The notes below the pieces were generated by a model that saw nothing but the letters and a program-made list of their open reading frames with translations, searched no databases and was not told the origin of the DNA. Positions 7,406-64,000 of a DNA stretch of 64,000 nucleotides are shown piece after piece. Positions within the stretch are counted from its first letter, which is position 1, and every line of letters starts with the position of its first letter. The stretch is from Halanaerobiales bacterium. GTDB taxonomy: Bacteria > Bacillota > Halanaerobiia > Halanaerobiales > M55B127. Made by a program: the position numbers and the translations under genes. The stretch is taken from NCBI GenBank assembly GCA_018399995.1, contig JAGYMU010000003.1:2873-66872 (forward strand), given 5' to 3'.

Positions 7406-7948
7406 ATGATTATATCTGATAAAACAATCAAAGATTTAATTAAAAAAGGGGAACTAATCATAGAACCCTTTGAAGATTATTTAATACAGCCTGCTTCAGT
7501 AGATTTAAGGCTGGGTACTCAGTATTTAAAAATTGATGAAAATCAAGTAGAAATCATGACCCTAAATGATAAAATAAATTATAATAAGATAGAAAGTTCT
7601 GAGATTGTAATTCCTCCCCACTCTTTTTTGCTGGCAACCACAGAGGAATACATTAGACTTCCTGAAAATCTAACCGCCTTTGTGGAAGGCAGGAGTTCAA
7701 TTGGTAGGATGGGCTTATTTATTCAAAATGCAGGTTGGGTTGACCCCGGTTTTGCAGGGAAGATTACTTTAGAATTATATAATGCAAACCGTTTGCCCAT
7801 TAAATTGAAAGCGGGACGCAGAATATGTCAATTAGTTATAGCTAAAATGGACCAAAAAGCAGAGTTTCCCTATCAGGGGAAATACCAGGGACAAAATACA
7901 GCGATTGGTAGTAAAGTGTATGAAGATAAAGAGAATATTGAAAAATAA
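7406..7948 (+). CDS. dcd: dCTP deaminase
   Basis: IQPASVDLRLG, EGRSSIGRMGL, DPGFAGKITLEL motifs. Confidence 0.92.
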   Translation: MIISDKTIKDLIKKGELIIEPFEDYLIQPASVDLRLGTQYLKIDENQVEIMTLNDKINYNKIESSEIVIPPHSFLLATTEEYIRLPENLTAFVEGRSSIGRMGLFIQNAGWVDPGFAGKITLELYNANRLPIKLKAGRRICQLVIAKMDQKAEFPYQGKYQGQNTAIGSKVYEDKENIEK

Positions 7949-8004
7949 TGTTTGCATAAGATTCAAGAAAAACACAGTAAACAATAAAACTAGGAGGTGT
8001 TAAT

Positions 8005-46555: not shown

Positions 46556-48586
46556 ATGGCTGTCATCACAAGTCTAAGCCTGGTCGCTGGTACGGAACAA
46601 ACCAGACAGACCCTGGTTAAACAGTTAAGAGAATATATTTCTGAAGAGATACCAATTAAAAGTTTTGTAATTGATAAAGGTATTGATCAAATAATCTCTG
46701 ATGATTTGGTTGTACTATCCAGTAATATAGTTGCAAAAGAGCTCAAAAATAAAGATGTTTTAGATAGTAATTGTGAAATCATCAATGCCGGAAGAACTAT
46801 TAATTATGATGTTATAGATGAGATAATGTTTTTAGAAACAGGAACTGATGTATTATTTGTTAATGATGTCAAAGAAACTGCTCTAAATGGTATAAAGGCC
46901 TTCCAAGATTTGCAGATTGATCACATTAACTTATATCCGTGTTACCCGGATATGGAAGAAGATCCTCAAATGGTAGAAGTTGCTATAACCCCGGGTGAGG
47001 TTAATAAAGTACCTGATTTTATTAAAGAAGTATATAATATTGGCCCTAGGATAATGGATCAGACAACTATTTTAAAGATCTTAAATAGAATGGGGATTCT
47101 TGAAATAAAAGCAGGAAAGTTTTCCCATTCTTATTTACATAAAATAATAAATATTGCGAAAAAGTTTGCTCAGTCTGCCAAAGATGTATCTAATTTAAAT
47201 GAACATCTGTCTACTGTAATCAACAGCCTTAATGATGCACTTGTAGTCTATGATAATAAGGGTTATATAAGTGTAAACAATAAGAATTTTGCAGAATTGT
47301 TTAATCATTCTTCCACTAGCCTTCATGGTAAATATATTAAAAACATAGTATATAGTAGAAAGCTGTTGGGTTTTCTTATGTCCGAAAAAATGAAAAAAGA
47401 AGTTTATCAAATAGCTAATAAGAATTATATTGTAAGCAAATTCTCCCTACCTGATTCCCGTTTTCACACGGCTGTTTTTAAAAGTGAAAAAGAAACAATT
47501 GATGATAGCAAAAGAATTAATCAGGAATTTATTAATAAGGGTTTTTATGCAAAGTATAATTTTGCTGATATTATTGGGGAAAGCGAAAAGAATAAGGAAA
47601 TTAAAGAAGTTGCTAAGAAACTGGCAAAAACTGATTTAACAATATTGATAGAGGGTGAAAGTGGTACAGGTAAAGAACTATTTGCTAATGCAATTCACAA
47701 TAGTTCAAACAGAAAAAACGGACCCTTTCTGGCAATTAATTTTAGCGCTTTACCCGACAAATTGATTGAAAGTGAACTATTTGGCTATGAATCCGGTGCC
47801 TTTACTGGTGCTAAAAAGGAAGGTAAAAAGGGGCTATTTGAAGAAGTAGATGGAGGCACTATCTTTTTAGATGAGATTGGTGATATATCAATAGAAGTTC
47901 AGGCCAGGTTACTGAGGGTTCTTCAGGAAAAAGAGTTAATGCGAATAGGGAGCAATAGAATTAATAGAGTTGATGTTAGAGTAATAGCTGCAACTAATAA
48001 AAATCTTTGGAATTTAATTGAAGAAGGCAAATTTAGAAAGGACTTATATTATCGTTTAAAAATTGGATATCTTAAAATACCACCGCTGCGGGAGAGAAAA
48101 GAAGACCTCAGAGAGCTTATTGAATATTTTATCAAAGTCGAGAGTACTCCATCTATAAAGATGGAGGATGCAGTCTATGATGAATTATTAAAATACAACT
48201 GGTATGGTAATGTTAGAGAATTAAAAAACACTCTCAGCTATATGCTGGCTGTTAAAGAAGGAACAACAATTAGATTGTCTGACATACCAAACAGAGATTT
48301 CTTCAAGGGAGAGATAACAGCTAACCTTGATATGATTGAGCCAAGCTTATCTTTAAGCGAAGAAGAGCAATTTTTGTTAGGGCTAATTGATAAGCTTAAA
48401 AAGGAAAATAATCTGGTAGGTAGGAGATTGCTGGCAGATAAATCCCAAAATACATCTTTTCCCCTTACAAAATATCAAGTTAGAAATAGACTTGATAAAC
48501 TAAAAGATAAGTCTTTAATTGAAAAAGGTAAAGGAAAAAAAGGAACAAATCTGACGGCTTTAGGGCGCAAATACTTAAACCAATAA
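46556..48586 (+). CDS. Sigma54-dependent transcriptional activator (N-terminal sensory region + PAS-like + AAA+ + C-terminal wHTH-like)
   Basis: GESGTGKE Walker A, the GAFTGA sigma54-contact loop (ESELFGYESGAFTGA), FLDEIG Walker B, and RVIAATN. Confidence 0.9.
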   Translation: MAVITSLSLVAGTEQTRQTLVKQLREYISEEIPIKSFVIDKGIDQIISDDLVVLSSNIVAKELKNKDVLDSNCEIINAGRTINYDVIDEIMFLETGTDVLFVNDVKETALNGIKAFQDLQIDHINLYPCYPDMEEDPQMVEVAITPGEVNKVPDFIKEVYNIGPRIMDQTTILKILNRMGILEIKAGKFSHSYLHKIINIAKKFAQSAKDVSNLNEHLSTVINSLNDALVVYDNKGYISVNNKNFAELFNHSSTSLHGKYIKNIVYSRKLLGFLMSEKMKKEVYQIANKNYIVSKFSLPDSRFHTAVFKSEKETIDDSKRINQEFINKGFYAKYNFADIIGESEKNKEIKEVAKKLAKTDLTILIEGESGTGKELFANAIHNSSNRKNGPFLAINFSALPDKLIESELFGYESGAFTGAKKEGKKGLFEEVDGGTIFLDEIGDISIEVQARLLRVLQEKELMRIGSNRINRVDVRVIAATNKNLWNLIEEGKFRKDLYYRLKIGYLKIPPLRERKEDLRELIEYFIKVESTPSIKMEDAVYDELLKYNWYGNVRELKNTLSYMLAVKEGTTIRLSDIPNRDFFKGEITANLDMIEPSLSLSEEEQFLLGLIDKLKKENNLVGRRLLADKSQNTSFPLTKYQVRNRLDKLKDKSLIEKGKGKKGTNLTALGRKYLNQ

Positions 48587-48671
48587 AACCATTTAATCTT
48601 AATGGTTAAACCAAAAAACCCCATTAAAGAACATATCTGGTCTGCATGACCGTCAAATAAGCACTATTAAT

Positions 48672-48687
48672 TGGCATGGTAATTGCA
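48672..48687 (+). promoter_or_regulatory. Sigma54 (-24/-12) promoter
   Basis: TGGCAT-ggtaa-TTGCA matches TGGCAC-N5-TTGCW in all but one position, 40 nt upstream of the ATG at 48727. Confidence 0.8.
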
Positions 48688-48726
48688 TTTTAAATATTAT
48701 AGATATTTTAGAAAGGAGTTTTACCA

Positions 48727-49899
48727 ATGAATTTCATAATAAAAAACGCAGAGGTATATTCTCCTGCTTATTTAGGTAAAAAAGATATAATGATTATCGG
48801 AGATAAAATAATAAAAATTCAGGATGAAATCACGATCAATAATAATTTAAATTTTTTAAATTTTCAGCTAATTGATGGAAGCCATAAATATATAGTTCCA
48901 GGTTTTATTGACAGTCATGAACATTTTCTGGGTGGAGGCGGTGAAGGTGGTTTTCATACCCGCACTCCTGAAATTCAACTGACAGATATAACAAAAGGTG
49001 GTGTTACAACGGCTATTGGTTGTCTGGGCACAGATAGTGTGGCTAGAAATTTAAGGGCTCTTTTGGCTAAAACTCGCGCCTTAGAAGAAGAAGGAATTAC
49101 TACATATATGTATACCGGTTCCTATAGAATACCTGTAGACACTATTACAGAAGGAATAAGAGAAGATATAATGATTATTGATAAGGTTATAGGGGTTGGT
49201 GAAATTGCTTTAGAAGACCACAGGTCTTCACAGCCGTGCTATGAAGAGTTTAACAAAGTTGTCGCAGAGGCTAATATAGGTGGTATGCTGGCGGGTAAAG
49301 CTGGTGTGGTTGATGTACATATGGGTAAAGGCAAAAATGGCTTAGAGTATCTTTATAGGATAATTGAAGAGGGAATACTGTCAGTTAAGAACATTTTACC
49401 CACCCATATTAATCGTAACCAAAATCTGTTAGACCAGGGTAAAGATTATACTAAAACAGGGGGTTTTATTGATTTAACGACAAGTTCTTCTAAAGTAAAA
49501 AGCCAAGAAAATCAGTGTGCAGCATCTCTTAAGTATTTATTAGAAGAGGATGTGCCTATCGATAATATCACATTTAGCTCAGATGCTCAGGGGAGTTTAC
49601 CCAAATTTGATAAAAACGGAAATATGATAGGCATGAAAATTGGTCAGGTCAGTTCCCTATATGCTGCTGTGAGAAGTGCGGTCCTCAATTATGGTATTGA
49701 TTTAGAATCTGCTTTAAAGGTTATTACTAAAAATCCAGCTCAGATATTTAAATTAAAAAACAAAGGAAGGGTAAAAGAAAATAATGAGGCTGACTTAGTT
49801 ATCTTAAATAGAGATGATCTGTTAATAGAAAGTGTAATTGCGCGTGGCAAAGTGATGATTAAAAATAAAGAGGCGGTAGTTGAAGGTACCTTTGAATAG
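48727..49899 (+). CDS. iadA: Isoaspartyl (beta-aspartyl) dipeptidase
   Basis: GFIDSHEHFLGGGGEGGFHTRTPE resembles the IadA signature (HVH..GGGGE.G..TRTPE), within an amidohydrolase fold. Confidence 0.8.
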   Translation: MNFIIKNAEVYSPAYLGKKDIMIIGDKIIKIQDEITINNNLNFLNFQLIDGSHKYIVPGFIDSHEHFLGGGGEGGFHTRTPEIQLTDITKGGVTTAIGCLGTDSVARNLRALLAKTRALEEEGITTYMYTGSYRIPVDTITEGIREDIMIIDKVIGVGEIALEDHRSSQPCYEEFNKVVAEANIGGMLAGKAGVVDVHMGKGKNGLEYLYRIIEEGILSVKNILPTHINRNQNLLDQGKDYTKTGGFIDLTTSSSKVKSQENQCAASLKYLLEEDVPIDNITFSSDAQGSLPKFDKNGNMIGMKIGQVSSLYAAVRSAVLNYGIDLESALKVITKNPAQIFKLKNKGRVKENNEADLVILNRDDLLIESVIARGKVMIKNKEAVVEGTFE

Positions 49900-49913
49900 G
49901 GAGGCAGAACAAA

Positions 49914-50846
49914 ATGTCTAATAGAAAAAAATACTGGACAAATAAGATAATTAGAACTATTATTACTGCTATTGGAGTTACCCTAATTGCTTTTCTAATC
50001 TTACATTTAACACCGGGAGATCCGGCTCGGATTATGTTGGGCTCTTATGCTAGTGAAGAAAACTTGGAAGCTGTTAGGGAGAAATATAATTTAAATGAAC
50101 CACTTCACATCCAATATTGGGCCTGGGTATCCAGTCTTGCAAAAGGTGATTTGGGTACTTCAATCCGCTATAATAGATCGGTTAATACATTGATAAAAAA
50201 TAGGATAGGTCCTACTTTAGTCTTAACTCTAACTGGTTTGATTATTTCTGTGGTACTGGGAGTGGTGATGGGTATTCTAGCTGCCCTTAAGCGTAATAGC
50301 TGGCTGGATTATCTAACAACTGTTCAAGCCATATTTTGGATTTCAATACCATCTTTTTGGCTGGGTATTTTATTTTTATATATTTTTGGTTTACAATTAA
50401 GATGGGTACCAATAGCAGGAATGGTGAGTTATACATCTGTAATTTTGCCAGCTCTAAGCCTGGGGTTGCGTCAGGAAGCCTGGTTTGCACGACCGATGAG
50501 GGCTGAAATGCTGGAAGTTTTAAATCAGGAATATATTAGAGCTGCTAAGGCTAAAGGATTAAAATATTACATAGTTGTTACTAAACATGCTTTAAGAAAT
50601 GCCCTTATACCTATCATTACCATGCTTGCTCTACGCTTGCCCTGGATAATTGGTGGCTCAGTGGTTATAGAGGTAGTTTTTTCCTGGGGAGGAATCGGTT
50701 CTCTGCTTGTTAACAGTGTTAAGGCAAGGGATTATCCTGTAGTTCAGGCCATTTTACTTTTAATTTCTATAGCGGTTGTTTTAGCCAACCTTTTTGCTGA
50801 TATTATATATACCTGGGTAGATCCCCGCATAAGAACGGAGGGATGA
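49914..50846 (+). CDS. Peptide/nickel ABC transporter permease (DppB/OppB-like)
   Basis: BPD_transp_1 pattern (EYIRAAKAKGL) and six TM segments. Confidence 0.9.
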   Translation: MSNRKKYWTNKIIRTIITAIGVTLIAFLILHLTPGDPARIMLGSYASEENLEAVREKYNLNEPLHIQYWAWVSSLAKGDLGTSIRYNRSVNTLIKNRIGPTLVLTLTGLIISVVLGVVMGILAALKRNSWLDYLTTVQAIFWISIPSFWLGILFLYIFGLQLRWVPIAGMVSYTSVILPALSLGLRQEAWFARPMRAEMLEVLNQEYIRAAKAKGLKYYIVVTKHALRNALIPIITMLALRLPWIIGGSVVIEVVFSWGGIGSLLVNSVKARDYPVVQAILLLISIAVVLANLFADIIYTWVDPRIRTEG

Positions 50847-51748
50847 GATTGAGTGAAGTCAATGTAGAAGAAATCAAGATGGAACTAGCCAATTTGAAAA
50901 ACAAAAAGTCCAGCCAGCTCAGTCTGGTCTGGAAGAGATTTAAGAGCAATCGACTTGCTCTGCTTGGTTTTGTATTTGTTATGATAATAATATTTATAGC
51001 CATATTTGCTCCTTTTTTAACCCCATATAAACCGTATGCTACTGATCCCAGCAACAGGTTAATGGGACCTTCTCGCACACATTTATTAGGAACAGATTCT
51101 CTGGGTAGAGATGTTTTAACCAGATTATTTTATGGGTCACGTATAGCCCTACAAATTGGAGTATTAATAATTTTATTTGAGGGCTTTATTGGAATTATGA
51201 TGGGGGTTTTATCAGGCTTTTTTGGAGGCATTATCGACAGTATTATTATGAGACTTGTTGATATTTTAAGATCTTTTCCGGTAATTATACTGGCCATGGC
51301 AATTGCGGGAATAATGGGGCAGGGAATATATAATGTTGTTATTGCCCTGGGGATAGTAGGTTGGACTACCTATGCCAGGATGGTAAGGAGCAAAATACTA
51401 TCTATTAAAGAGGCTGATTATATAGAGGCAGGTTACTCGATTGGAGAAAGTACTTATTCAATTATTACAAGATATATTGTGCCTAATGCTATACCAACTG
51501 CAATAGTTATGATCAGTATTATGATGCCTACAGCTTTAATTGCTTCTGCTACACTGAGTTTTCTCGGTTTAGGTGTACAGCCACCAATTCCTTCCTGGGG
51601 GTCAATGGTTGCAGCCGGTAGGAATTATCTTCTGCAAGCACCCTGGATTTCCACTTCAGCAGGCTTTTTTATCATGTTTACTGTTTTAGGATTTAACTTT
51701 ATCGGAGATGGTTTAAGAGATGCACTTGATCCAACCACAAAACATTAA
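50843..51748 (+). CDS. Peptide/nickel ABC transporter permease (DppC/OppC-like)
   Basis: N-terminal OppC-type segment, EADYIEAGYSIGES motif, and ATGA overlap with the upstream permease. Confidence 0.9.
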   Translation: MRLSEVNVEEIKMELANLKNKKSSQLSLVWKRFKSNRLALLGFVFVMIIIFIAIFAPFLTPYKPYATDPSNRLMGPSRTHLLGTDSLGRDVLTRLFYGSRIALQIGVLIILFEGFIGIMMGVLSGFFGGIIDSIIMRLVDILRSFPVIILAMAIAGIMGQGIYNVVIALGIVGWTTYARMVRSKILSIKEADYIEAGYSIGESTYSIITRYIVPNAIPTAIVMISIMMPTALIASATLSFLGLGVQPPIPSWGSMVAAGRNYLLQAPWISTSAGFFIMFTVLGFNFIGDGLRDALDPTTKH

Positions 51749-51768
51749 AAAGTTAAAGGAGATATATA

Positions 51769-52731
51769 ATGAGTGAATTACTCTATATTAAGGATTTGAA
51801 GGTATATTTCAATACTGAAGAAGGTGTGGTAAAAGCCCTGGCAGGAGTAAACTTTGAGATAGTAAAAGGTAGTTTCCACGGTTTAATCGGTGAAACTGGT
51901 TGTGGTAAAAGTGTTACAGGTCTTTCTATCTTAAAACTGCTGGATAATAATGCCTTAATTGAAGGTGGCGAGATTATATATAAAGATGAAAATTTATTAG
52001 ATAAAACGGAAAAACAGATGCAGAAAGATTTTAGAGGAAATGAAATAGCAATGATCTTTCAAGATCCCGGTTCTTCTTTAAATCCTGTCTTTACAATCCA
52101 GGACCAGATTCAAGAATCAGTTAAGATGTATAAGAAGGCATCTAAACAGGAATATAGAAATATAGTAATAGAAGAACTTAAAAAGGTAAAATTGCCTGAT
52201 GTAGAAGGCCTTTTAGATAAATATCCTCATCAGTTAAGTGGGGGCATGAAGCAGAGGGTTATGATAGCAATGATGCTGGCCTGCAATCCCAATCTTTTAA
52301 TAGCAGATGAACCCACAACTGCATTAGATGTTTCAATTCAAGCTCAGTTTTTGCAGGTTTTGAAAAATTTAAAAGATAAATTCGATATGACCGTTTTATA
52401 TATCACCCATGATTTGGCAGTAGTTAGTGAGATTTGTGATTATGTATCAGTTATGTATGCAGGCAGGATTGTAGAAAATGTCCCGGTTAGAGAACTCTTC
52501 AAAAACCCTGTCCATCCTTATAGTTATAAGTTAGTTCATTCGGTTTTAGGTGTCAAAACATTTTTAGAAGATCTAGAAGAGATACCAGGTTCTGTACCAA
52601 GATTAATAGATCCACCTTCAGGATGTAGATTCCACCCTCGCTGTGAAGAAGCAATAGATATTTGCAAAACAAAGGTACCACAACTTAAAAAGATAGGTAA
52701 AAATCATTATGTAGCCTGTCATAGAAGGTGA
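51769..52731 (+). CDS. Peptide ABC transporter ATP-binding protein (DppD/OppD-like)
   Basis: GETGCGKS Walker A, LSGGMKQR signature, LIADEPTTALD Walker B, and a C-terminal oligopeptide Cys motif. Confidence 0.93.
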   Translation: MSELLYIKDLKVYFNTEEGVVKALAGVNFEIVKGSFHGLIGETGCGKSVTGLSILKLLDNNALIEGGEIIYKDENLLDKTEKQMQKDFRGNEIAMIFQDPGSSLNPVFTIQDQIQESVKMYKKASKQEYRNIVIEELKKVKLPDVEGLLDKYPHQLSGGMKQRVMIAMMLACNPNLLIADEPTTALDVSIQAQFLQVLKNLKDKFDMTVLYITHDLAVVSEICDYVSVMYAGRIVENVPVRELFKNPVHPYSYKLVHSVLGVKTFLEDLEEIPGSVPRLIDPPSGCRFHPRCEEAIDICKTKVPQLKKIGKNHYVACHRR

Positions 52732-53693
52732 TAAAATTGGCAAATACTATAATTGAAACCAAGGATTTAAAAAAATATTTTGATACACTCAAAGGCCCCT
52801 GCAAAGCTGTTAATAAAGTTAATTTAAGAATTAAACAGGGAGAGACATTTGGCCTGGTTGGAGAGTCGGGATGCGGCAAATCTACACTTGTACGCACAAT
52901 TTTAAAATTAATTGAACCCACTTCAGGACAAATCTTTTTAGATGGTGTAGATATTACTGATTATAAGAAAAAAAAGTTGATGGCATTGAGAAAAAAAATG
53001 TCACTTGTATTTCAGGATCCTCATTCTTCTTTAAATCCGAGGATGACAGTTTTTGATACCCTGTCAAGACCTCTAAAAATACATAACTTAACTAAAAATA
53101 ATGAAGAAACAATGATTGAAATTACAAAGTTACTGAAGTTAATGGGCATGCAGCCGGAACATATGATTAGATTCCCCCATGAATTAAGTGGAGGACAGAA
53201 ACAAAGAATTGGTATTGCGCGGGCTCTAGCAGTCAAACCTGAGCTAATATTTTTAGACGAACCAACTTCTGCTCTTGATGTATCGGTACAAACCAAAATA
53301 TTAAAGTTATTGAATAAAACAAAAAAGATCAGAGACCTCACTTATTTTTATATTTCACATGACATTAATTTAATCAGGGTTGTATCTGATCGTATTGGTG
53401 TGATGTATTTAGGTCAAATAGTTGAAATTGGGGAGGTTGATCTAATATATAATAATCCCATACACCCCTATACAAAAGGCTTATTCGCATCTGTACCTGA
53501 ACCTGATCCTGATAAGAAGATTAAAGGCGAGCCATTGAGCGGTGAGGTGCCCAGTCCTGTTAATCCACCCATGGGATGTAGTTTTGCACCACGATGTCCC
53601 TTTGTAGAGCCGAAATGTAGAGAGGAAAAACCAAAACTTAAACTACTTTCAGATGGAAGGAGGGTTGCCTGTCATAAGGATAACTTAAGATAA
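52728..53693 (+). CDS. Peptide ABC transporter ATP-binding protein (DppF/OppF-like)
   Basis: GESGCGKST, LSGGQKQR, FLDEPTSALD. Confidence 0.93.
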   Translation: MIKLANTIIETKDLKKYFDTLKGPCKAVNKVNLRIKQGETFGLVGESGCGKSTLVRTILKLIEPTSGQIFLDGVDITDYKKKKLMALRKKMSLVFQDPHSSLNPRMTVFDTLSRPLKIHNLTKNNEETMIEITKLLKLMGMQPEHMIRFPHELSGGQKQRIGIARALAVKPELIFLDEPTSALDVSVQTKILKLLNKTKKIRDLTYFYISHDINLIRVVSDRIGVMYLGQIVEIGEVDLIYNNPIHPYTKGLFASVPEPDPDKKIKGEPLSGEVPSPVNPPMGCSFAPRCPFVEPKCREEKPKLKLLSDGRRVACHKDNLR

Positions 53694-53731
53694 GAATAGC
53701 TTTTTTAAAAATCTAATTAGGAGGTTTTAAT

Positions 53732-55276
53732 GTGAAAAAGACTATTTCATTATTTTTAACATTTTCATTATTGATTGGTTTGATGATCTTTTCTGTAGTT
53801 GTCACAGCTCAGGAAGATGACACCGTTCATATTGCTATTCAAACTGAACCCTCTAAATTAAATCCCATTACCTATCAAGATACTGAAACAGACTTTGTAT
53901 TAAGTCAAATCTGTGATCCTCTAGTAGAGGTTTCAACTGAGGGTTCTTATACAGCAGAGGGAGCTATTATCGAAGATTATAGGATTGAAGAGGGTGGTAA
54001 GGTATATGTTTTTGAAATTAGAGAAGGGATTAAATTTCATAATGGAGAAGATCTGACAGGTGAAGATGTAAAATTCACATACGAATCCTTAAAAGATAAA
54101 GAACTTGCTTCACCACATAGAAGTTATTATGAAGGTATTGAAGATATAGTCTTAGTTGATGAATATACTGTGAAAGTTATCCTGGGAGATACAAATGTTA
54201 CATTTTTGACTAATGCCAGGTTACGTAATCATGTATTACCTAAGGATTATATTGAAGAAGTAGGTTGGGATGGGTATGAGAAACATCCTGTTGGTAGTGG
54301 GCCATATGAGTTTATCGAACATGATCCTGGTCAAAGGATAGTCCTGAAGAAATTTGAAGATTTTTGGGGAGAGAATGCAAAGATAGACAATCTAATATTT
54401 AGATTTTATCCAGAGACGACTTCAGCAGTTATGGCTTTACAGACCAAAGAAATAGACTTTATTGCAGAGATGCCGGCTGAAGTATTCGAAGATCTAAAAA
54501 GCAAAGAAGATGTGGGCTTAAAATTTGGCACATATAATAAATTTGAGGATCATAGGATTTGCTTCAATAAGCGCGAAGATAGTATATTTAGTGATGTACG
54601 CTTGCGGAAAGCAGTTGCTTATGCTGTCAATAGATATGAACTTATTGAGTTAACACGAGGAGATATGGCTGTACCGGCTGCTGGTAGGGTTCCCAGCTTC
54701 CATCCTGCTACTGCACCCAATGCTAATGCCTATGAAGAAAATCTTGAAAAAGCGCAAGAATTAATGGCAGAAGCAGGTTATCCTGATGGATTTAAGACAA
54801 AGATTTTTGCTCCTTCCGGTTATAGAGAAAGGGTTCTGGAAGTTCAGCAGATCCAGCAGCAGTTAGCAAGAATTAATATTGATCTGGAGGTTGTAACATT
54901 AGAATGGGGTACTTATCTAGATGTTACAGCAGATGGCCAGGCACCGATGTTTAGAGAAAGATGGTCAGCAGGTGTCCCTTCCCCTTATAGTTTTGTAGAA
55001 AACTGGCATTCTGAATCAGGATGGAATGCGATATTTGGTACTTATGAAAATGATGAGGTTGATGCTTTAATTGATTTAATCAAGGTCACCACAGATCAAG
55101 AAGAGAGATGGCAGTTATATAGAACCGTACAAAATCTAGCTATGGATGAAGTTGCCTGTTATCCATTATATTGGCCTGTAATAGGTGAAGCATATAATGA
55201 TGAAATTACCATTCCAGAAGATGTATGGAATGTCTTCAAAAGACCGATTTATAATGTTGATAAATGGCATTTTTAA
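53732..55276 (+). CDS. Family-5 peptide/nickel substrate-binding protein, secreted
   Basis: N-terminal signal/TM helix and SBP_bac_5-like length and motifs (GSGPYEF). Confidence 0.9.
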   Translation: MKKTISLFLTFSLLIGLMIFSVVVTAQEDDTVHIAIQTEPSKLNPITYQDTETDFVLSQICDPLVEVSTEGSYTAEGAIIEDYRIEEGGKVYVFEIREGIKFHNGEDLTGEDVKFTYESLKDKELASPHRSYYEGIEDIVLVDEYTVKVILGDTNVTFLTNARLRNHVLPKDYIEEVGWDGYEKHPVGSGPYEFIEHDPGQRIVLKKFEDFWGENAKIDNLIFRFYPETTSAVMALQTKEIDFIAEMPAEVFEDLKSKEDVGLKFGTYNKFEDHRICFNKREDSIFSDVRLRKAVAYAVNRYELIELTRGDMAVPAAGRVPSFHPATAPNANAYEENLEKAQELMAEAGYPDGFKTKIFAPSGYRERVLEVQQIQQQLARINIDLEVVTLEWGTYLDVTADGQAPMFRERWSAGVPSPYSFVENWHSESGWNAIFGTYENDEVDALIDLIKVTTDQEERWQLYRTVQNLAMDEVACYPLYWPVIGEAYNDEITIPEDVWNVFKRPIYNVDKWHF

Positions 55277-59487: not shown

Positions 59488-59956
59488 AATAATTATCATA
59501 AAAACAATATATGTTGTAAATCTTTATTAATTTTTAAACTGATGAAAAATTATAATATAAGGCCATTTTAGTTATTAATTGGTATGCTATGTGAACAAAG
59601 ATATAATTGTAAAATTTATCAAAGTATAATAAATTTGATCACAGATTTAAATACATACCTAGAAAAGTTTTAATTTCAACAATATTCCCAATGTTCCTAC
59701 AAGAATAGGATGAAAGGCAAATAACCTTTATTTATTTAGTGAAAAAAATAACATAAACAATAGATTGGCATTGATTTCTATTGTAATTGAAGGTATAATT
59801 ATAATAGATAAAGGGTAAATATTTAAATATAAGATTATTTTTCAATATTATTTGAATAAAAATTAAAGTGATTAACAAAATTGAATTATTAACTTTTATC
59901 TCAGAGTATGATGTATCAAAAATACAAGTTATCTAAAAATTATTCTTTTTATAATT

Positions 59957-62608
59957 TTGTTTTTCACTAAAATAAATTTTAGCAAAGGGGCGATTAGTAT
60001 TAATAACTTAGTTACAACTATAAAAGATTCCTGTCATGAGTGTTATGCTTGTGTAAGGAACTGTCCCGTAAAAGCCCTACAGGTTAAGGATGGCCAGGCA
60101 GAGGTGATTGATCACCGCTGTATTAATTGTACTAATTGTGTAACTATATGTTCACAAGGTGCTAAAGAAGTAAAAAACTATAAAGAGCACATAAGCTCCT
60201 TATTAAAAACAGGAAAAGAAAATATTGTTATTGGTTTGGCTCCCAGCTTTCCTGCTTTCGACACAGATTTGAGCTTAAAAGATTGGCAGAACATATTACT
60301 GCAGGCAGGTTTTAAAGAGGTTTATGAGGTTGCCTGGGGAGCTCAATTAATAATTGATGAATATAAGAAATACTTAAAAGAAAGTGATGAACCTGTTATA
60401 AGCAGCGCCTGTCCGGTTGTTGTTAATTATATTAGGAAATATTATTCTGAGTTAGTAAAATATTTAGCACCGTTTGTTTCACCAATGGGTGCCCTTGTTA
60501 GATATTTAGAAGAAATATTGGATTCTGAAGAGAAAATTGTTCTGGTTGGCCCCTGTCATGCAAAAAAATCAGAATTTTCCGAAAGCAGTATGGTTGAGGG
60601 AGTTTTGACATTTACAGAGTTTTTTGAAATGTTAAATGAAGATTTCAATATTAATTTTTCAAAAAAGAATAGCAGTATTGAAAATGACGTTAATCCAGCC
60701 TCAATAATAACGGATTATTCCCGCCAGATTCCTATAGCAGGAGGCCTAAAAGACGCATTAGTAGAAAATACAGATGATCAATATATTAAGGTTGAAGACA
60801 GTAAAAAATTATGCGCGCTTTTTGATATGATGTCAGAAGGGGAAATAAGACCTGATTTTGTTGATGCACTATTTTGCGATGGCTGTATAAACGGTGTGGA
60901 TTTAACTGAAAAGAGTCATTTTAAAAAGGAAATAGCCGTTAATCAATTTATCAACAAGAGAGAAAGGACTGAGCAATTAAAATATAAGGCTGAGTTGGCT
61001 TCAGATATAGACTATAGCTTTCTGTACACTGAAGACTATCAAAAACTAGAAGAACCAAGTCAAGCAGAAATTTGGAAAATTCTTGCAAAGACTAATAAAT
61101 ACTGTGAAGATGATTTATTAAACTGTGGGGCATGTGGCTATGATTCATGTGAAGAAAAAGCAGTTGCTGTTTATCAAGGTATAGCAGAAGTTGAAATGTG
61201 TTTACCTTTTTTACTTGATGAAAGAAGAAATGAAGTAGAAGATATTAAAAACTTAAATCTGGAACTTGATAGTATTATTAATTCTTCCTATGATGGAATG
61301 TTATTAGTTGATAATAAGTTAAGTGTTGAAAAAGTAAATGATGCTTATTTAGATATGATTGACCTCACAGAAGAAGAGTTGCTTAATTTAGACCTTTATG
61401 AATTAGAGGAAGAAAAAATTATTTATCCCTCGGCAGCTTTGTTAGCTTTTAAGGAAAAAAGGGATATTACTATTGTACAAAATACAGATAATAAAAAACT
61501 ACTAACTACTGCTACTCCAGTCTTATCTGACGATAATGAAATTATCAGAGTTATTGTTAACGCCAGGGATATAAATGAACTAGATGTGAGTGTAGACACA
61601 AATTTATCAGGTCATGAGAAAGTAAAATTATCAATTAAAGATGGTGACAATAAGCATAATAAGATGTCTCATATTGTCTGTAAATCAGATAAAATGAAAC
61701 GGATATTAAATATTGCTGAAAAAATCGGTGATACAAATTCTACAGTTTTAATTACGGGTGATTCAGGAGTTGGTAAAGAAGTAATAGCTAGATATATTCA
61801 CAAATTAGATAATAAAAGAGAAGAACTTGTAAAGATTAATTGTGGCGCAATACCAGAGAGGTTACTAGAATCGGAGTTATTCGGTTATGAAACCGGTGCA
61901 TTTAGTGGGGCAAGAAGAGAAGGCAAACCCGGCTTAATTGAAAAAGCTAATAATGGTACTTTGTTTTTAGATGAAATTGGAGAGATGCCTGTCAATATGC
62001 AGGTAAAATTACTTCAAGTTATTCAGGAACATCGTCTGACAAGAATTGGTGGAGTTGAGGCAATTGAAGTTAATTTTAGATTGATAGCAGCTACAAATAG
62101 AAATTTAAAGAAAAGCGTAGAGGCGGGAGAATTTAGAGAGGATCTCTTTTATAGGTTGAATGTGATACCAATAAACATACCACCTTTGTCTGAAAGGCCG
62201 CAGGACATAATACCTTTATTTGAATATTATATAGATAAATTTAATGAAAAATATAATAAAAAAGCTCATTTTGACCCCGGGGTTAAGGATATTTTAATAA
62301 AATACGATTGGCCGGGCAATGTGAGGGAAATGATTAACTTAATTGAGAGATTGGTAGTGACCAGTGAAAAATCACAGATTATTACTGTAAAGAATGTTGA
62401 AGAGTTTCTTAATACCAAAAAAAATGAGGGGGAGGACAGTAATATAGTAGTTAAGGATATTGTTCCTTTAAGAGAAGCGGTTGATTTAGTTGAAAAAGAA
62501 CTGCTCAAGTTGGCTAAAGGCAAGAATAAGACTACTTATGAGATTGCTGATATACTGGGTGTTAATCAATCCACTGTAGTAAGAAAGTTAAAAAAGTACT
62601 TTGATTGA
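59957..62608 (+). CDS. Fusion protein: 2x[4Fe-4S] + sensory-type [FeFe]-hydrogenase H-domain + Cx2Cx4Cx16C + PAS + sigma54 AAA+ activator + HTH
   Basis: CHECYACVRNCP / CINCTNCVTIC. H-domain motif variants SSACPVV, GPCHAKK, FCDGCINGV. CGACGYDSC-x16-C. PAS-like segment ~aa 430-545. GDSGVGKE, ESELFGYETGAFSGA, FLDEIGE, RLIAATN. C-terminal HTH (TTYEIADILGVNQSTVVRKLKKY). The exact start codon is uncertain (TTG 59957 is the first in-frame start). Confidence 0.85.
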   Translation: MFFTKINFSKGAISINNLVTTIKDSCHECYACVRNCPVKALQVKDGQAEVIDHRCINCTNCVTICSQGAKEVKNYKEHISSLLKTGKENIVIGLAPSFPAFDTDLSLKDWQNILLQAGFKEVYEVAWGAQLIIDEYKKYLKESDEPVISSACPVVVNYIRKYYSELVKYLAPFVSPMGALVRYLEEILDSEEKIVLVGPCHAKKSEFSESSMVEGVLTFTEFFEMLNEDFNINFSKKNSSIENDVNPASIITDYSRQIPIAGGLKDALVENTDDQYIKVEDSKKLCALFDMMSEGEIRPDFVDALFCDGCINGVDLTEKSHFKKEIAVNQFINKRERTEQLKYKAELASDIDYSFLYTEDYQKLEEPSQAEIWKILAKTNKYCEDDLLNCGACGYDSCEEKAVAVYQGIAEVEMCLPFLLDERRNEVEDIKNLNLELDSIINSSYDGMLLVDNKLSVEKVNDAYLDMIDLTEEELLNLDLYELEEEKIIYPSAALLAFKEKRDITIVQNTDNKKLLTTATPVLSDDNEIIRVIVNARDINELDVSVDTNLSGHEKVKLSIKDGDNKHNKMSHIVCKSDKMKRILNIAEKIGDTNSTVLITGDSGVGKEVIARYIHKLDNKREELVKINCGAIPERLLESELFGYETGAFSGARREGKPGLIEKANNGTLFLDEIGEMPVNMQVKLLQVIQEHRLTRIGGVEAIEVNFRLIAATNRNLKKSVEAGEFREDLFYRLNVIPINIPPLSERPQDIIPLFEYYIDKFNEKYNKKAHFDPGVKDILIKYDWPGNVREMINLIERLVVTSEKSQIITVKNVEEFLNTKKNEGEDSNIVVKDIVPLREAVDLVEKELLKLAKGKNKTTYEIADILGVNQSTVVRKLKKYFD

Positions 62609-62723
62609 TGCAGTCTTGCATTAAGGTGATGTAGTTGTGCATTAATGATAAAGCCTGTTATTACAACTAAACGTGATTAATAATGTGAAAAAAATATCTA
62701 AAGTCGATGCGCGACTGCATTAT
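62609..62723 (+). repeat. Three copies of a 16-19 nt motif GATG-N6-TGCATTA (candidate enhancer/UAS sites)
   Basis: tGATGCAGTCTTGCATTAA (core 62609-62624), tGATGTAGTTGTGCATTAA (62630-62645) and cGATGCGCGACTGCATTAT (62708-62723). Copies 1 and 2 are offset by exactly 21 bp. Confidence 0.5.
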
Positions 62724-62877
62724 ATAGTGTTTTTTTAGAAAAGAGTGGTGAATTATTAGGATATTTTTATTCTTATTCATTATTTAAAAAATATATTAAG
62801 GTTAAAAATACTTAAAACAGGCTATTTTGACTAAAAAATGAACATTTTAAGGATTTAAATCTAAGATATTTACATTC

Positions 62878-62893
62878 TGGTACAATATATGCA
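62878..62893 (+). promoter_or_regulatory. Sigma54 (-24/-12) promoter candidate
   Basis: TGGTAC-aatat-ATGCA has GG and GC at the canonical spacing (TGGCAC-N5-TTGCA). It lies 91 nt upstream of the ATG at 62984 and 155-270 nt downstream of the repeats. Confidence 0.7.
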
Positions 62894-62983
62894 TAATATA
62901 ATAAACAGAAGTAATTAGGCAAGTTAGTGTTTTTTTTAACAAAATAAGAGAATTTATTCACAAAAAAGGAGGTTTGTATTTAG

Positions 62984-63394
62984 ATGAATAGTGATAAGTT
63001 TTTAGACAGGGCTCATGATATTCAGGACACTTATGGTTATATTCCAGAAGGTGAAATAGACAAAATGGCCAAAGAATTTGATGTACCGAGAGCGAAGGTA
63101 TATGGCAGCATCCGTTTTTATTCGATGTTTTATACGGAACCGACGGGTAAGTATATCATTAGGGTATGTGACAGTCTTTCCTGTCACATTAATGATTCAA
63201 AATCTATTGTGGAAAGTATAAAAAATTATTTAGGCATTGATGATGGAGAAACTACAAAAAACAAAAAATTTACACTTGAAGTGGTAGAATGTCTAGGACA
63301 CTGTGGAGAAGGTCCGGTTATGATGGTAAATGATGAAATGTATACTCATGTTAGTGAAAATATGGCCTTAGATATTATCAAAGATTGCACATAA
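62984..63394 (+). CDS. NuoE-like [2Fe-2S] subunit (second copy)
   Basis: CDSLSCHIN ... CLGHCGEGPV four-Cys pattern. Paralogous to 16329..16817. AAGGAGG RBS. Confidence 0.9.
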   Translation: MNSDKFLDRAHDIQDTYGYIPEGEIDKMAKEFDVPRAKVYGSIRFYSMFYTEPTGKYIIRVCDSLSCHINDSKSIVESIKNYLGIDDGETTKNKKFTLEVVECLGHCGEGPVMMVNDEMYTHVSENMALDIIKDCT

Positions 63395-63411: not shown

Positions 63412-64000
63412 ATGAGTGAAAAATATTTTTTGAAAGAAAACATGGTAAAAAGTATTTCGGATTATGATTTTTCTGCTTTTAAAAAAGCCCTTAAGATGGG
63501 ACAAAGTAAGGTTGTAAAAGAAATTGAAGATTCAGGTTTAAAAGGAAGGGGCGGTGCGGGCTTTCCTACTGGCTTTAAATGGAAGCTTGCCTCACAGCAA
63601 GAATCTGATTTGAAATATTTTATCTGTAATGGTGATGAAGGTGAACCGGGAACTTTTAAAGACCGCTTATTAATGGAAGATAGTCCCGTTAGGGTTTTAG
63701 AAGGGATAATGATAGGTGCATTTGCAGTTGGTGCCAGCCAGGGATATATATATATAAGAGGAGAATATGCAAAGTCAATTAAAATATTTAATGACATAAT
63801 TAAGGAAGCTAAAAAAGAACAGGTATTAGGTGAAAATATATTCGGCAGTGATTTCAGTTTTGACATGAAACTTATTAAAGGTGCCGGTGCTTATGTATGT
63901 GGAGATGAAACTTCTTTAATTAATTCGATAGAAGGTCACAGAGGAATATCTCGTATTAAACCACCTTATCCTATTGAAAAAGGACTATTCGATAAACCTA
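63412..64000 (+). CDS. NuoF-like flavoprotein subunit (second copy), 5' partial, runs off the window
   Basis: My own translation from ATG 63412 reads MSEKYFL...GLKGRGGAGFPTGFKWK...ICNGDEGEPGTFKDR...GAGAYVCGDETSLINSIEG. It follows an AAGGAGG RBS. It is absent from the ORF track because there is no stop inside the window. Confidence 0.9.
   Translation, partial: MSEKYFLKENMVKSISDYDFSAFKKALKMGQSKVVKEIEDSGLKGRGGAGFPTGFKWKLASQQESDLKYFICNGDEGEPGTFKDRLLMEDSPVRVLEGIMIGAFAVGASQGYIYIRGEYAKSIKIFNDIIKEAKKEQVLGENIFGSDFSFDMKLIKGAGAYVCGDETSLINSIEGHRGISRIKPPYPIEKGLFDKP

Follow-up and report, generated by a model that had tools for sequence, protein, structure and literature searches.

Predicted enhancer dyads and a putative sigma-54 promoter between a hydrogenase-domain activator gene and an [FeFe]-hydrogenase operon in Halanaerobiales

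In a 64-kb stretch of DNA from a Halanaerobiales bacterium (contig JAGYMU010000003.1; hereafter the window, whose numbering is used for all positions), a gene for a regulator that joins an [FeFe]-hydrogenase-like domain to a sigma-54 activator lies directly upstream of an operon starting with NuoE- and NuoF-like genes. The spacer between them holds three similar palindromes and a -24/-12-like element, which raises the question of whether these are the means by which the regulator controls the operon, as a first-pass annotation of the sequence had proposed. Judging from sequence comparisons, we consider it probable (roughly 80%) that the dyads are enhancer sites (upstream activating sequences, UAS) of the adjacent upstream regulator, and that TGGTAC-N5-ATGCA is the sigma-54 promoter of hydC-hydB-hydA(-rex). 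Gene order, the dyad clusters and the promoter are all kept in related loci, the dyads are some 300 times denser in the spacers than elsewhere, and the DNA-binding helix of the regulator is invariant, all of which supports the proposal of cognate enhancers and a sigma-54 promoter. The elements concerned are the following:

59957..62608, plus strand: regulator gene, 883 aa, analysed by Pfam, alignment to CpI and residues invariant in 16 homologues.
62607-62624: repeat 1, GATGCAGTCTTGCATTAA.
62628-62645: repeat 2, GATGTAGTTGTGCATTAA, 21 bp start-to-start from repeat 1.
62706-62723: repeat 3, GATGCGCGACTGCATTAT, 78 bp start-to-start from repeat 2.
62606..62623, no strand: predicted enhancer site 1, TGATGCAGTCTTGCATTA, with a perfect ATGCA-N4-TGCAT core, overlapping the TGA stop of the regulator.
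62627..62644, no strand: predicted enhancer site 2, TGATGTAGTTGTGCATTA, with one mismatch in the core and its centre 21 bp from that of site 1.
62705..62722, no strand: predicted enhancer site 3, CGATGCGCGACTGCATTA, with one mismatch in the core and its centre 78 bp from that of site 2.
62724..62877, no strand: AT-rich spacer from enhancer to promoter, 18.8% G+C as against 33.5% for the window, presumed to form a loop.
62878..62893, plus strand: predicted sigma-54 (-24/-12) promoter, TGGTAC-AATAT-ATGCA, with GG at 62879-80, GC at 62891-92 and a predicted start near 62903.
62966..62972, plus strand: ribosome-binding site AAGGAGG, 11 nt before the ATG.

The three near-identical repeats, with spacings of 21 and 78 bp, are present in the window exactly as they had been quoted. 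The form GATGNNNNNNTGCATTA (GATG-N6-TGCATTA) had three exact matches on both strands of the 64 kb, all of them inside 116 bp, as compared with 0.04 ± 0.20 in shuffled sequences, where none of 100 shuffles gave three matches; allowing one mismatch yielded zero extra sites in the window. The dyad is better described as ATGCA-N4-TGCAT, extended to TRATGCA-N4-TGCATYA, with GATG...TGCATTA being the local form of an 18-bp palindrome, whereas TGCA-N6-TGCA was rejected as a motif because it misses sites, N4 being the correct spacing. The cluster does adjoin the stop codon, although the first repeat does not begin right after it, as annotated, but overlaps the TGA (62606-62608), whose G and A open the GATG. 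Counted from the promoter GG, the site centres are 165.5, 243.5 and 264.5 bp upstream, within the approximately 80-300 bp usual for UAS, and, as UAS are, the sites are dyad-symmetric, present in at least two copies and phased on one helix face.

The promoter starts 154 bp past the third repeat, in agreement with the earlier estimate of around 155 bp, and has the canonical spacing, with GG and GC exactly 10 nt apart and two of 11 specified positions departing from TGGCAC-N5-TTGCW. The intervening stretch, described as AT-rich and bendable, is indeed poor in G+C but not special, since the intergenic region at 59488-59956 also has 18.8% G+C; A+T richness aside, the sequence of 62724-62877 is not conserved. 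Downstream, both the AAGGAGG at 62966-62972 and the NuoE-like ATG at 62984 are in place; the 90 nt given for the leader hold for the distance from promoter end to ATG, but the leader counted from the predicted start (~62903) would be about 80 nt long. This leader appears unstructured when its fold is compared with those of shuffles (z = +1.45).

The pattern TGGYAYNNNNNWTGCW occurs twice in the window (0.63 expected), and the second copy, at 48672, is also downstream of a sigma-54 activator gene, the window containing two activator genes with sigma-54 interaction domains. This second gene (region 46556-48687) encodes a protein of 676 aa with a canonical GAFTGA loop, and is followed after 86 bp by TGGCAT-GGTAA-TTGCA (48672-48687) and then by an amidohydrolase and Opp/Dpp-type ABC transporter operon (region 46556-55276). 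Its layout, activator then target, is alike, but its spacer is without ATGCA dyads, indicating that the motif is specific to the spacer of the hydrogenase-domain regulator. The second activator and its promoter give indirect support to the use of sigma-54 by this organism.

Exact-protein look-ups retrieved 12 orthologous loci (L081-L092), two of which, L082 and L083, encode the same protein with an identical spacer and were counted once, leaving 11 distinct loci. Identity of their regulators with that of the window is 92-57% in L081-L088, 52% in L089 (Halothermothrix orenii, CP001098), 53% in L090 (Iocasia, CP046640) and 44% in both L091 (a Thermoanaerobacteraceae metagenome-assembled genome) and L092 (Abyssisolibacter). 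Scanning for ATGCA-N4-TGCAT with at most one mismatch, we found a dyad cluster straight after the regulator stop in 10 of the 11 related loci, and all ten have a downstream GG-N10-GC; the conservation of repeats and promoter in orthologous loci, which the first-pass annotation had put forward as a check, is thus borne out. Nine of these ten loci carry two to three dyads each, and L092 carries one, plus a weaker copy at the stop codon. Altogether, 29 dyads fall within the 4.5 kb of spacer from the window and the ten loci, as against four in the other 184 kb, a density about 300 times higher, while shuffled spacers contained a mean of 0.12 dyads and a maximum of three.

The arrangement of the dyads is also conserved. 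Site 1 opens with the final base of the stop codon in the window, L081, L082, L084, L085, L087 and L090, and 5 bp later in L086. Nine loci, among them the window, have two adjacent sites, and in every one of these the centre-to-centre distance of sites 1 and 2 is 20-21 bp. A third site follows 69-89 bp past site 2 in seven of the eight other site-bearing Halanaerobiales loci, H. orenii having only two sites; within this order, sites 2 and 3 are separated by 69, 77-80 or 89 bp, and these steps of around 10 bp hint at a preserved helical phase. In loci other than the window, the last site precedes GG by 60-298 bp. A matrix from 31 sites reads wTT(A/G)ATGCA-nnnn-TGCAT(T/C)Aw, with ATG and CAT invariant in 31/31 and a 4-nt spacer that varies freely.

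GG-N10-GC is kept in all 11 dyad-bearing loci (the window plus ten), mostly as TGGCAC/T-N5-ATGCA in Halanaerobiales and as TGGCAC/T-N5-TTGCA in H. orenii, L091 and L092. Within ±20 bp, TGG.A.A.....TGCA are the sole columns that nine or more of the 11 loci share. Intrinsic terminators stand between site 3 and the promoter in L082 (7764-7792) and L090 (8761-8773), directly after the third site, indicating that the operon has its own promoter there. In H. orenii, a 50-bp tandem repeat of 4.7 copies, 98% identical (L089 8817-9052), lies between the enhancer pair and the promoter, and stretches the distance between them to some 300 bp.

By its domain content, the regulator is a genuine sigma-54 activator, that is, a bacterial enhancer-binding protein of the NtrC family. 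Pfam gave the order 2x[4Fe-4S] ferredoxin, [FeFe]-hydrogenase H-domain (Fe_hyd_lg_C), 4-Cys FeS, PAS, sigma-54 AAA+, AAA lid and the helix-turn-helix (HTH) domain HTH_50, with no kinase or receiver domain, and scores of 223 bits for PF00158 Sigma54_activat (cut-off 20.2), 72 bits for PF25601 and 28 bits for PF18024 (cut-off 27). No NCBIfam model reached its cut-off for the regulator, the best being PrdR with 373 bits as against 795. Across the family, the recognition helix of the HTH domain (about residues 830-883), GVNQSTVVRK, does not vary, in keeping with a motif that is constant across orders. The sigma-54 contact loop, at residues 647-652 (~61895-61912), is GAFSGA in the window and in all aligned Halanaerobiales, and GAFTGA in distant homologues; two comparative studies count GAFSGA among the functional variants of this loop (PMC6615313, PMC4641369). 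The GAFSGA proteins of Halanaerobiales mostly pair with an ATGCA -12 element, and the GAFTGA loops of distant homologues and of the second activator in the window pair with TTGCA, H. orenii being an exception (GAFSGA with TTGCA) in a sample too small for a correlation between loop and -12 element.

The N-terminal part has the features of a putative sensory [FeFe] hydrogenase: the four H-cluster cysteines, substitutions at the positions of CpI C299, M353 and M497, and a 4-Cys domain followed by PAS. Cysteines C152, C200, C307 and C310 correspond to CpI C300, C355, C499 and C503 and are invariant in 16 homologues, whereas A151, G198 and L305 occupy the positions of C299, M353 and M497. PF04060 matched residues 388-417 and PAS residues 436-542, and C390, C393, C398 and C415 are likewise invariant in the 16 homologues. 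A radical-SAM CxxxCxxC (HydE/G) motif was not found inside the long open reading frames (ORFs) in a six-frame translation of the window. The same architecture is found in more than 120 full-length relatives, mostly from Halanaerobiales, with others from Thermoanaerobacteraceae, Tepidanaerobacteraceae, Abyssisolibacter and Lucifera.

The genes following the promoter within the window are:

62984..63394, plus strand: hydC, first gene of the operon, encoding a NuoE-like [2Fe-2S] thioredoxin-like subunit of 136 aa (Pfam PF01257; NCBIfam NuoE just below cut-off).
63412..64000, plus strand: hydB, encoding a NuoF-like FMN subunit (Pfam PF01512), cut by the window end.

In L081, whose regulator is 92% identical, hydB (410 aa) is followed by hydA (570 aa) and then rex, and the presence of hydA and rex in the source genome is inferred from this locus, the DNA of which is 91.5% identical to the window over ~4 kb. 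All 11 related loci show regulator, spacer, hydC, hydB and hydA (570-576 aa) in this order and on the same strand, with hydA containing Fer2, NADH-G_4Fe-4S_3, Fe_hyd_lg_C and Fe_hyd_SSU domains; this conserved layout points to a HydABC-type operon for an [FeFe] hydrogenase of the electron-bifurcating type as the target. The gene next to hydA is rex in L081, L084, L089 and L090.

The operons fall into two classes by the length of hydB, which is ~410 aa in the window, L081, L084 and L089, and ~1030 aa in L082, L085-L088, L090 and L091, where it is fused to a GltD-like Fer4_20/Pyr_redox_2 module; this fusion may entail a different nucleotide specificity. In close relatives with the fused form (L082, L085-L087), the distance from enhancer to promoter is about 115-120 bp as against ~166 bp, and the leader is longer (~120-180 nt) and holds an internal Shine-Dalgarno-like AAAGGGAGGGAT. 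Upstream of the regulator, the window has an ORF-free gap of 470 bp with 18.8% G+C (59488-59956), next to an M20 peptidase gene, at the place where L081-L086, L089 and L090 have a minus-strand gene of the Mem_trans/AEC family (~310 aa). No remnant of this gene was detected in the window by tblastn, indicating that it was cleanly lost or replaced.

Two further boxes in the spacer resemble binding sites for Rex:

62946..62963, no strand: AAGAGAATTTATTCACAA, a Rex-like box of the leader, 38 nt upstream of the hydC ATG.
62684..62695, no strand: conserved box TGTGAAAAAAAT, between sites 2 and 3, resembling a Rex half-site.

The leader box AAGAGAATTTATTCACAA has three mismatches in 14 positions to TTGTGAA-N4-TTCACAA, all in the left half, the right half being perfect, and a similar box occurs 33-38 nt before the start codon in L081, L084, L082, L087 and L089. 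It may provide a second layer of control that depends on NADH/NAD+ (redox). Alignment of the window, L081 and L084 shows TGTGAAAAAAAT to be conserved between sites 2 and 3. In loci with the long NuoF-GltD form, a TGTGAAAAAAAT-like box is found just downstream of the promoter (L082 7901, L085 7801, L086 7868, L087 3724 and L090 8935). The three dyads themselves were rejected as Rex boxes, as they do not match the Rex consensus.

Several observations weigh against cognate enhancers acting on a sigma-54 promoter. L088, which is syntenic and encodes a regulator with 57% identity and an identical HTH helix, has no -24/-12 element in 12.6 kb and no dyads, its spacer being devoid of them even at two mismatches. 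Instead, this spacer (7601-7964) contains Rex-like boxes and, as a sigma-70-like promoter, TTGACT-N17-TAGTAT. It follows that the regulator can occur with no cis module next to it; the module appears to have been lost or replaced in L088 and not to be universal. The -24 element of the window departs from consensus by a T for C (TGGTAC), and that of L081 reads CGG; no RpoN box was found in the six-frame translation of the 64 kb; and no terminator was detected in the window on the stretch leading from the regulator gene to the promoter, so that read-through could be a further source of operon transcripts. The promoter is also overlapped by a good match of the sigma-70-like kind:

62869..62897, plus strand: sigma-70-like match TTTACA-17-CATAAT, 10/12, overlapping -24/-12, a rival or auxiliary promoter.

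A metagenome-wide search for paired perfect dyads 20-21 bp apart was uninformative, swamped by eukaryote-like microsatellites of (ATGC)n and (ATGCATAC)n, and none of the 80 loci listed from it encodes a relative of the regulator or of NuoE. One unrelated metagenome contig (L168, 13020-13200) contains about nine head-to-tail copies of a 21-bp unit, GATGCAyAACTGCATnnnnTT, with the same dyad core; this array adjoins transposase-like and caspase/CHAT-like ORFs, has no activator nearby, and is probably unrelated to the enhancer sites.

How, then, should the dyads and the -24/-12 element be read? We infer the assignment of the sites to the adjacent regulator from proximity and co-conservation only, and L088 shows that the two can be uncoupled, so the dyads might instead be operators of a different DNA-binding protein, such as a global redox or metal regulator, and be close to the regulator gene because both control the hydrogenase operon. 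The Rex-like boxes in the same spacer indicate that more than one regulator probably acts here. We nevertheless regard a foreign operator as unlikely, because the sites are 165-271 bp upstream of -24/-12, the locus has no activator gene other than the adjacent one, the motif is constant over taxa in which the HTH helix of the regulator is invariant, and the dyad does not match TTGTGAA-N4-TTCACAA. A sigma-54 promoter requires an enhancer-bound activator, and phased dyads, of which there are three here, are typical of the sites on which NtrC-type activators oligomerise. Quite unlikely, too, is transcription of the window operon from TTTACA-17-CATAAT or by read-through from the regulator, with -24/-12 being non-functional or auxiliary. 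That view can draw on the 10/12 score, on the departure of both elements from consensus (the -12 is ATGCA, not TTGCA) and on the lack of a detected terminator upstream in the window; yet sigma-70-like matches of this kind numbered four against 4.0 expected in shuffles of the AT-rich stretch, the -35-like hexamer is conserved in no ortholog whereas GG and GC are invariant in 11/11 loci, and conserved enhancer sites would make no sense for a sigma-70 promoter at least 165 bp away.

The palindromes could also act as RNA, forming hairpins or a long-range helix in the 3' untranslated region (UTR) of the regulator mRNA with a role in its stability or termination. Consistent with this, the predicted fold of 62600-62735 (-34 kcal/mol) is more favourable than those of shuffles (z = -3.1) and has a hairpin at site 1 and site 2 paired with site 3, and in L082 and L090 the sites lie upstream of the regulator terminator, so that all three are transcribed there as part of the 3' UTR. 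However, any set of similar palindromes folds in this way, the 5-bp stem is weak and there is no Rfam match. Covariation between arms over the 31 sites did not exceed that of column shuffles, ATG and CAT are the same throughout, and the majority of mismatches disrupt pairing with no compensating change; an RNA role is thus very improbable. As for functionless repeats arising by chance or by recent local duplication, nothing but the shortness of the motif speaks for them, and three matches against 0.04 expected, in a cluster whose position and sequence are kept by 10 of 11 related loci, including those where regulator identity is as low as 44%, leave that explanation a negligible probability and effectively refute it.

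If the dyads are enhancers of the adjacent regulator, dimers of the protein would bind the two adjacent dyads, 21 bp apart on the same helix face, through the C-terminal HTH, and a further dimer would bind the distal dyad, 78 bp onward, so that a single AAA+ hexamer could be assembled from three dimers. Looping of the AT-rich 155 bp would allow the hexamer to contact the sigma-54 holoenzyme in a closed complex at -24/-12, where ATP hydrolysis would open the promoter. The HydS-like N-terminal module might respond to H2 or redox state by gating oligomerisation or ATPase activity, and this signal would in turn set transcription of the catalytic hydrogenase, switching it either on or off. We put forward, tentatively and as a possibility that is still somewhat doubtful, a one-component sensor of H2 (or of H-cluster redox state), in which a sensory-type [FeFe] module gates a sigma-54 AAA+ activator that acts through three TRATGCA-N4-TGCATYA enhancers to switch an electron-bifurcating operon.

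The cis elements themselves are textbook in kind, an enhancer plus a sigma-54 promoter, and their interest comes from what they are linked with. In recent papers, sensory [FeFe] hydrogenases of groups C and D (HydS) are described as 'putative' sensors, with an unclear role and with signalling routes that are untested or challenged (PMC10055695, PMC13104023). Should the sensor proposal hold, it would give these enzymes a first defined signalling output with DNA targets, in a module conserved across at least three orders of anaerobic Firmicutes. A stretch of 380 bp is enough to define the predicted sites, promoter and target operon, which many anaerobes conserve, so the function of sensory [FeFe] hydrogenases would become directly testable; the motif is ready for regulon prediction in Halanaerobiales, Thermoanaerobacterales and related genomes, and the locus is a candidate H2-responsive genetic switch. 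An earlier description of the motif or regulon of this regulator was not found in the literature searched, from which subscription-only papers were excluded, the sole mention found being the listing of a regulator-type domain architecture in PMC6615313.

Two known types of control are among the nearest comparisons for the spacer. NtrC/NifA-type modules, such as glnAp2 and nifH, combine enhancers with a sigma-54 promoter. The locus resembles them in having multiple dyads 100-250 bp upstream of GG-N10-GC, an activator that adjoins a single target operon, and an AAA+ domain with a GAFTGA-type loop and a C-terminal HTH; it differs in that site 1 overlaps the activator's own stop codon and in that Halanaerobiales carry GAFSGA. 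Rex represses fermentative hydrogenase operons in Firmicutes. A candidate Rex-like box lies in the leader of this operon, and rex ends several orthologous operons; the three dyads are not Rex boxes, and the leader box has 3/14 mismatches.

Among Clostridial activators, most control one adjacent operon and have several sites 100-250 bp upstream (Nie et al. 2019, PMC6615313). That paper names TGT-N10-12-ACA as common to 15 of 39 groups, unlike the ATGCA-N4-TGCAT of this locus; 'ATGCA' had no match in the text of its supplementary file, a comparison that is incomplete since the motifs of other groups are given in a figure and a supplementary table. Fer4-Fe_hyd_lg_C-FeS activators (CFE_2753, TherJR_2992) appear there in a supplementary table only, with neither motif nor regulon. 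FhlA, which acts on the hyc/hyp promoters of E. coli, is similarly a one-component sigma-54 activator with an N-terminal sensor and upstream dyads that controls hydrogenase genes; however, it senses formate via GAF domains, its target is a [NiFe] hydrogenase and, according to the summary in PMC6615313, its UAS is of the TGT-N10-ACA type.

Control of hydrogenase genes by a hydrogenase-like sensor through an NtrC-family activator has an apparent parallel in HoxBC-HoxJ-HoxA of Cupriavidus necator, in which, according to the background of PMC5707799, a [NiFe] regulatory hydrogenase signals through a histidine kinase to a response regulator, each of them a separate protein. Here, the [FeFe]-type sensor, AAA+ and HTH are in one polypeptide, and membership of the locus in the HoxBC/HoxJ/HoxA system was rejected, as its sensor is of the [FeFe] type and fused, with no kinase or receiver domain. 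The sensor itself resembles the putative sensory hydrogenases HydS/HfsB of group C (M2f), as in Thermotoga maritima and Ruminococcus albus: the N-terminal 560 aa of the regulator likewise consist of 2x[4Fe-4S], H-domain, 4-Cys cluster and PAS, and the gene adjoins a hydABC-type operon in those examples as it does here. T. maritima HydS shares two of the three substitutions, with Ala at the position of CpI C299 (A131) and Gly at that of M353 (G177), and differs in the third, having S267 at the M497 position where the regulator has Leu (PMC10055695). Stand-alone HydS is thought to signal via neighbouring Ser/Thr kinases or phosphatases, its output being putative (PMC10055695, PMC13104023, PMC5707799), and it ends after PAS, whereas in the regulator described here the PAS domain is fused directly to an activator with predicted DNA targets.

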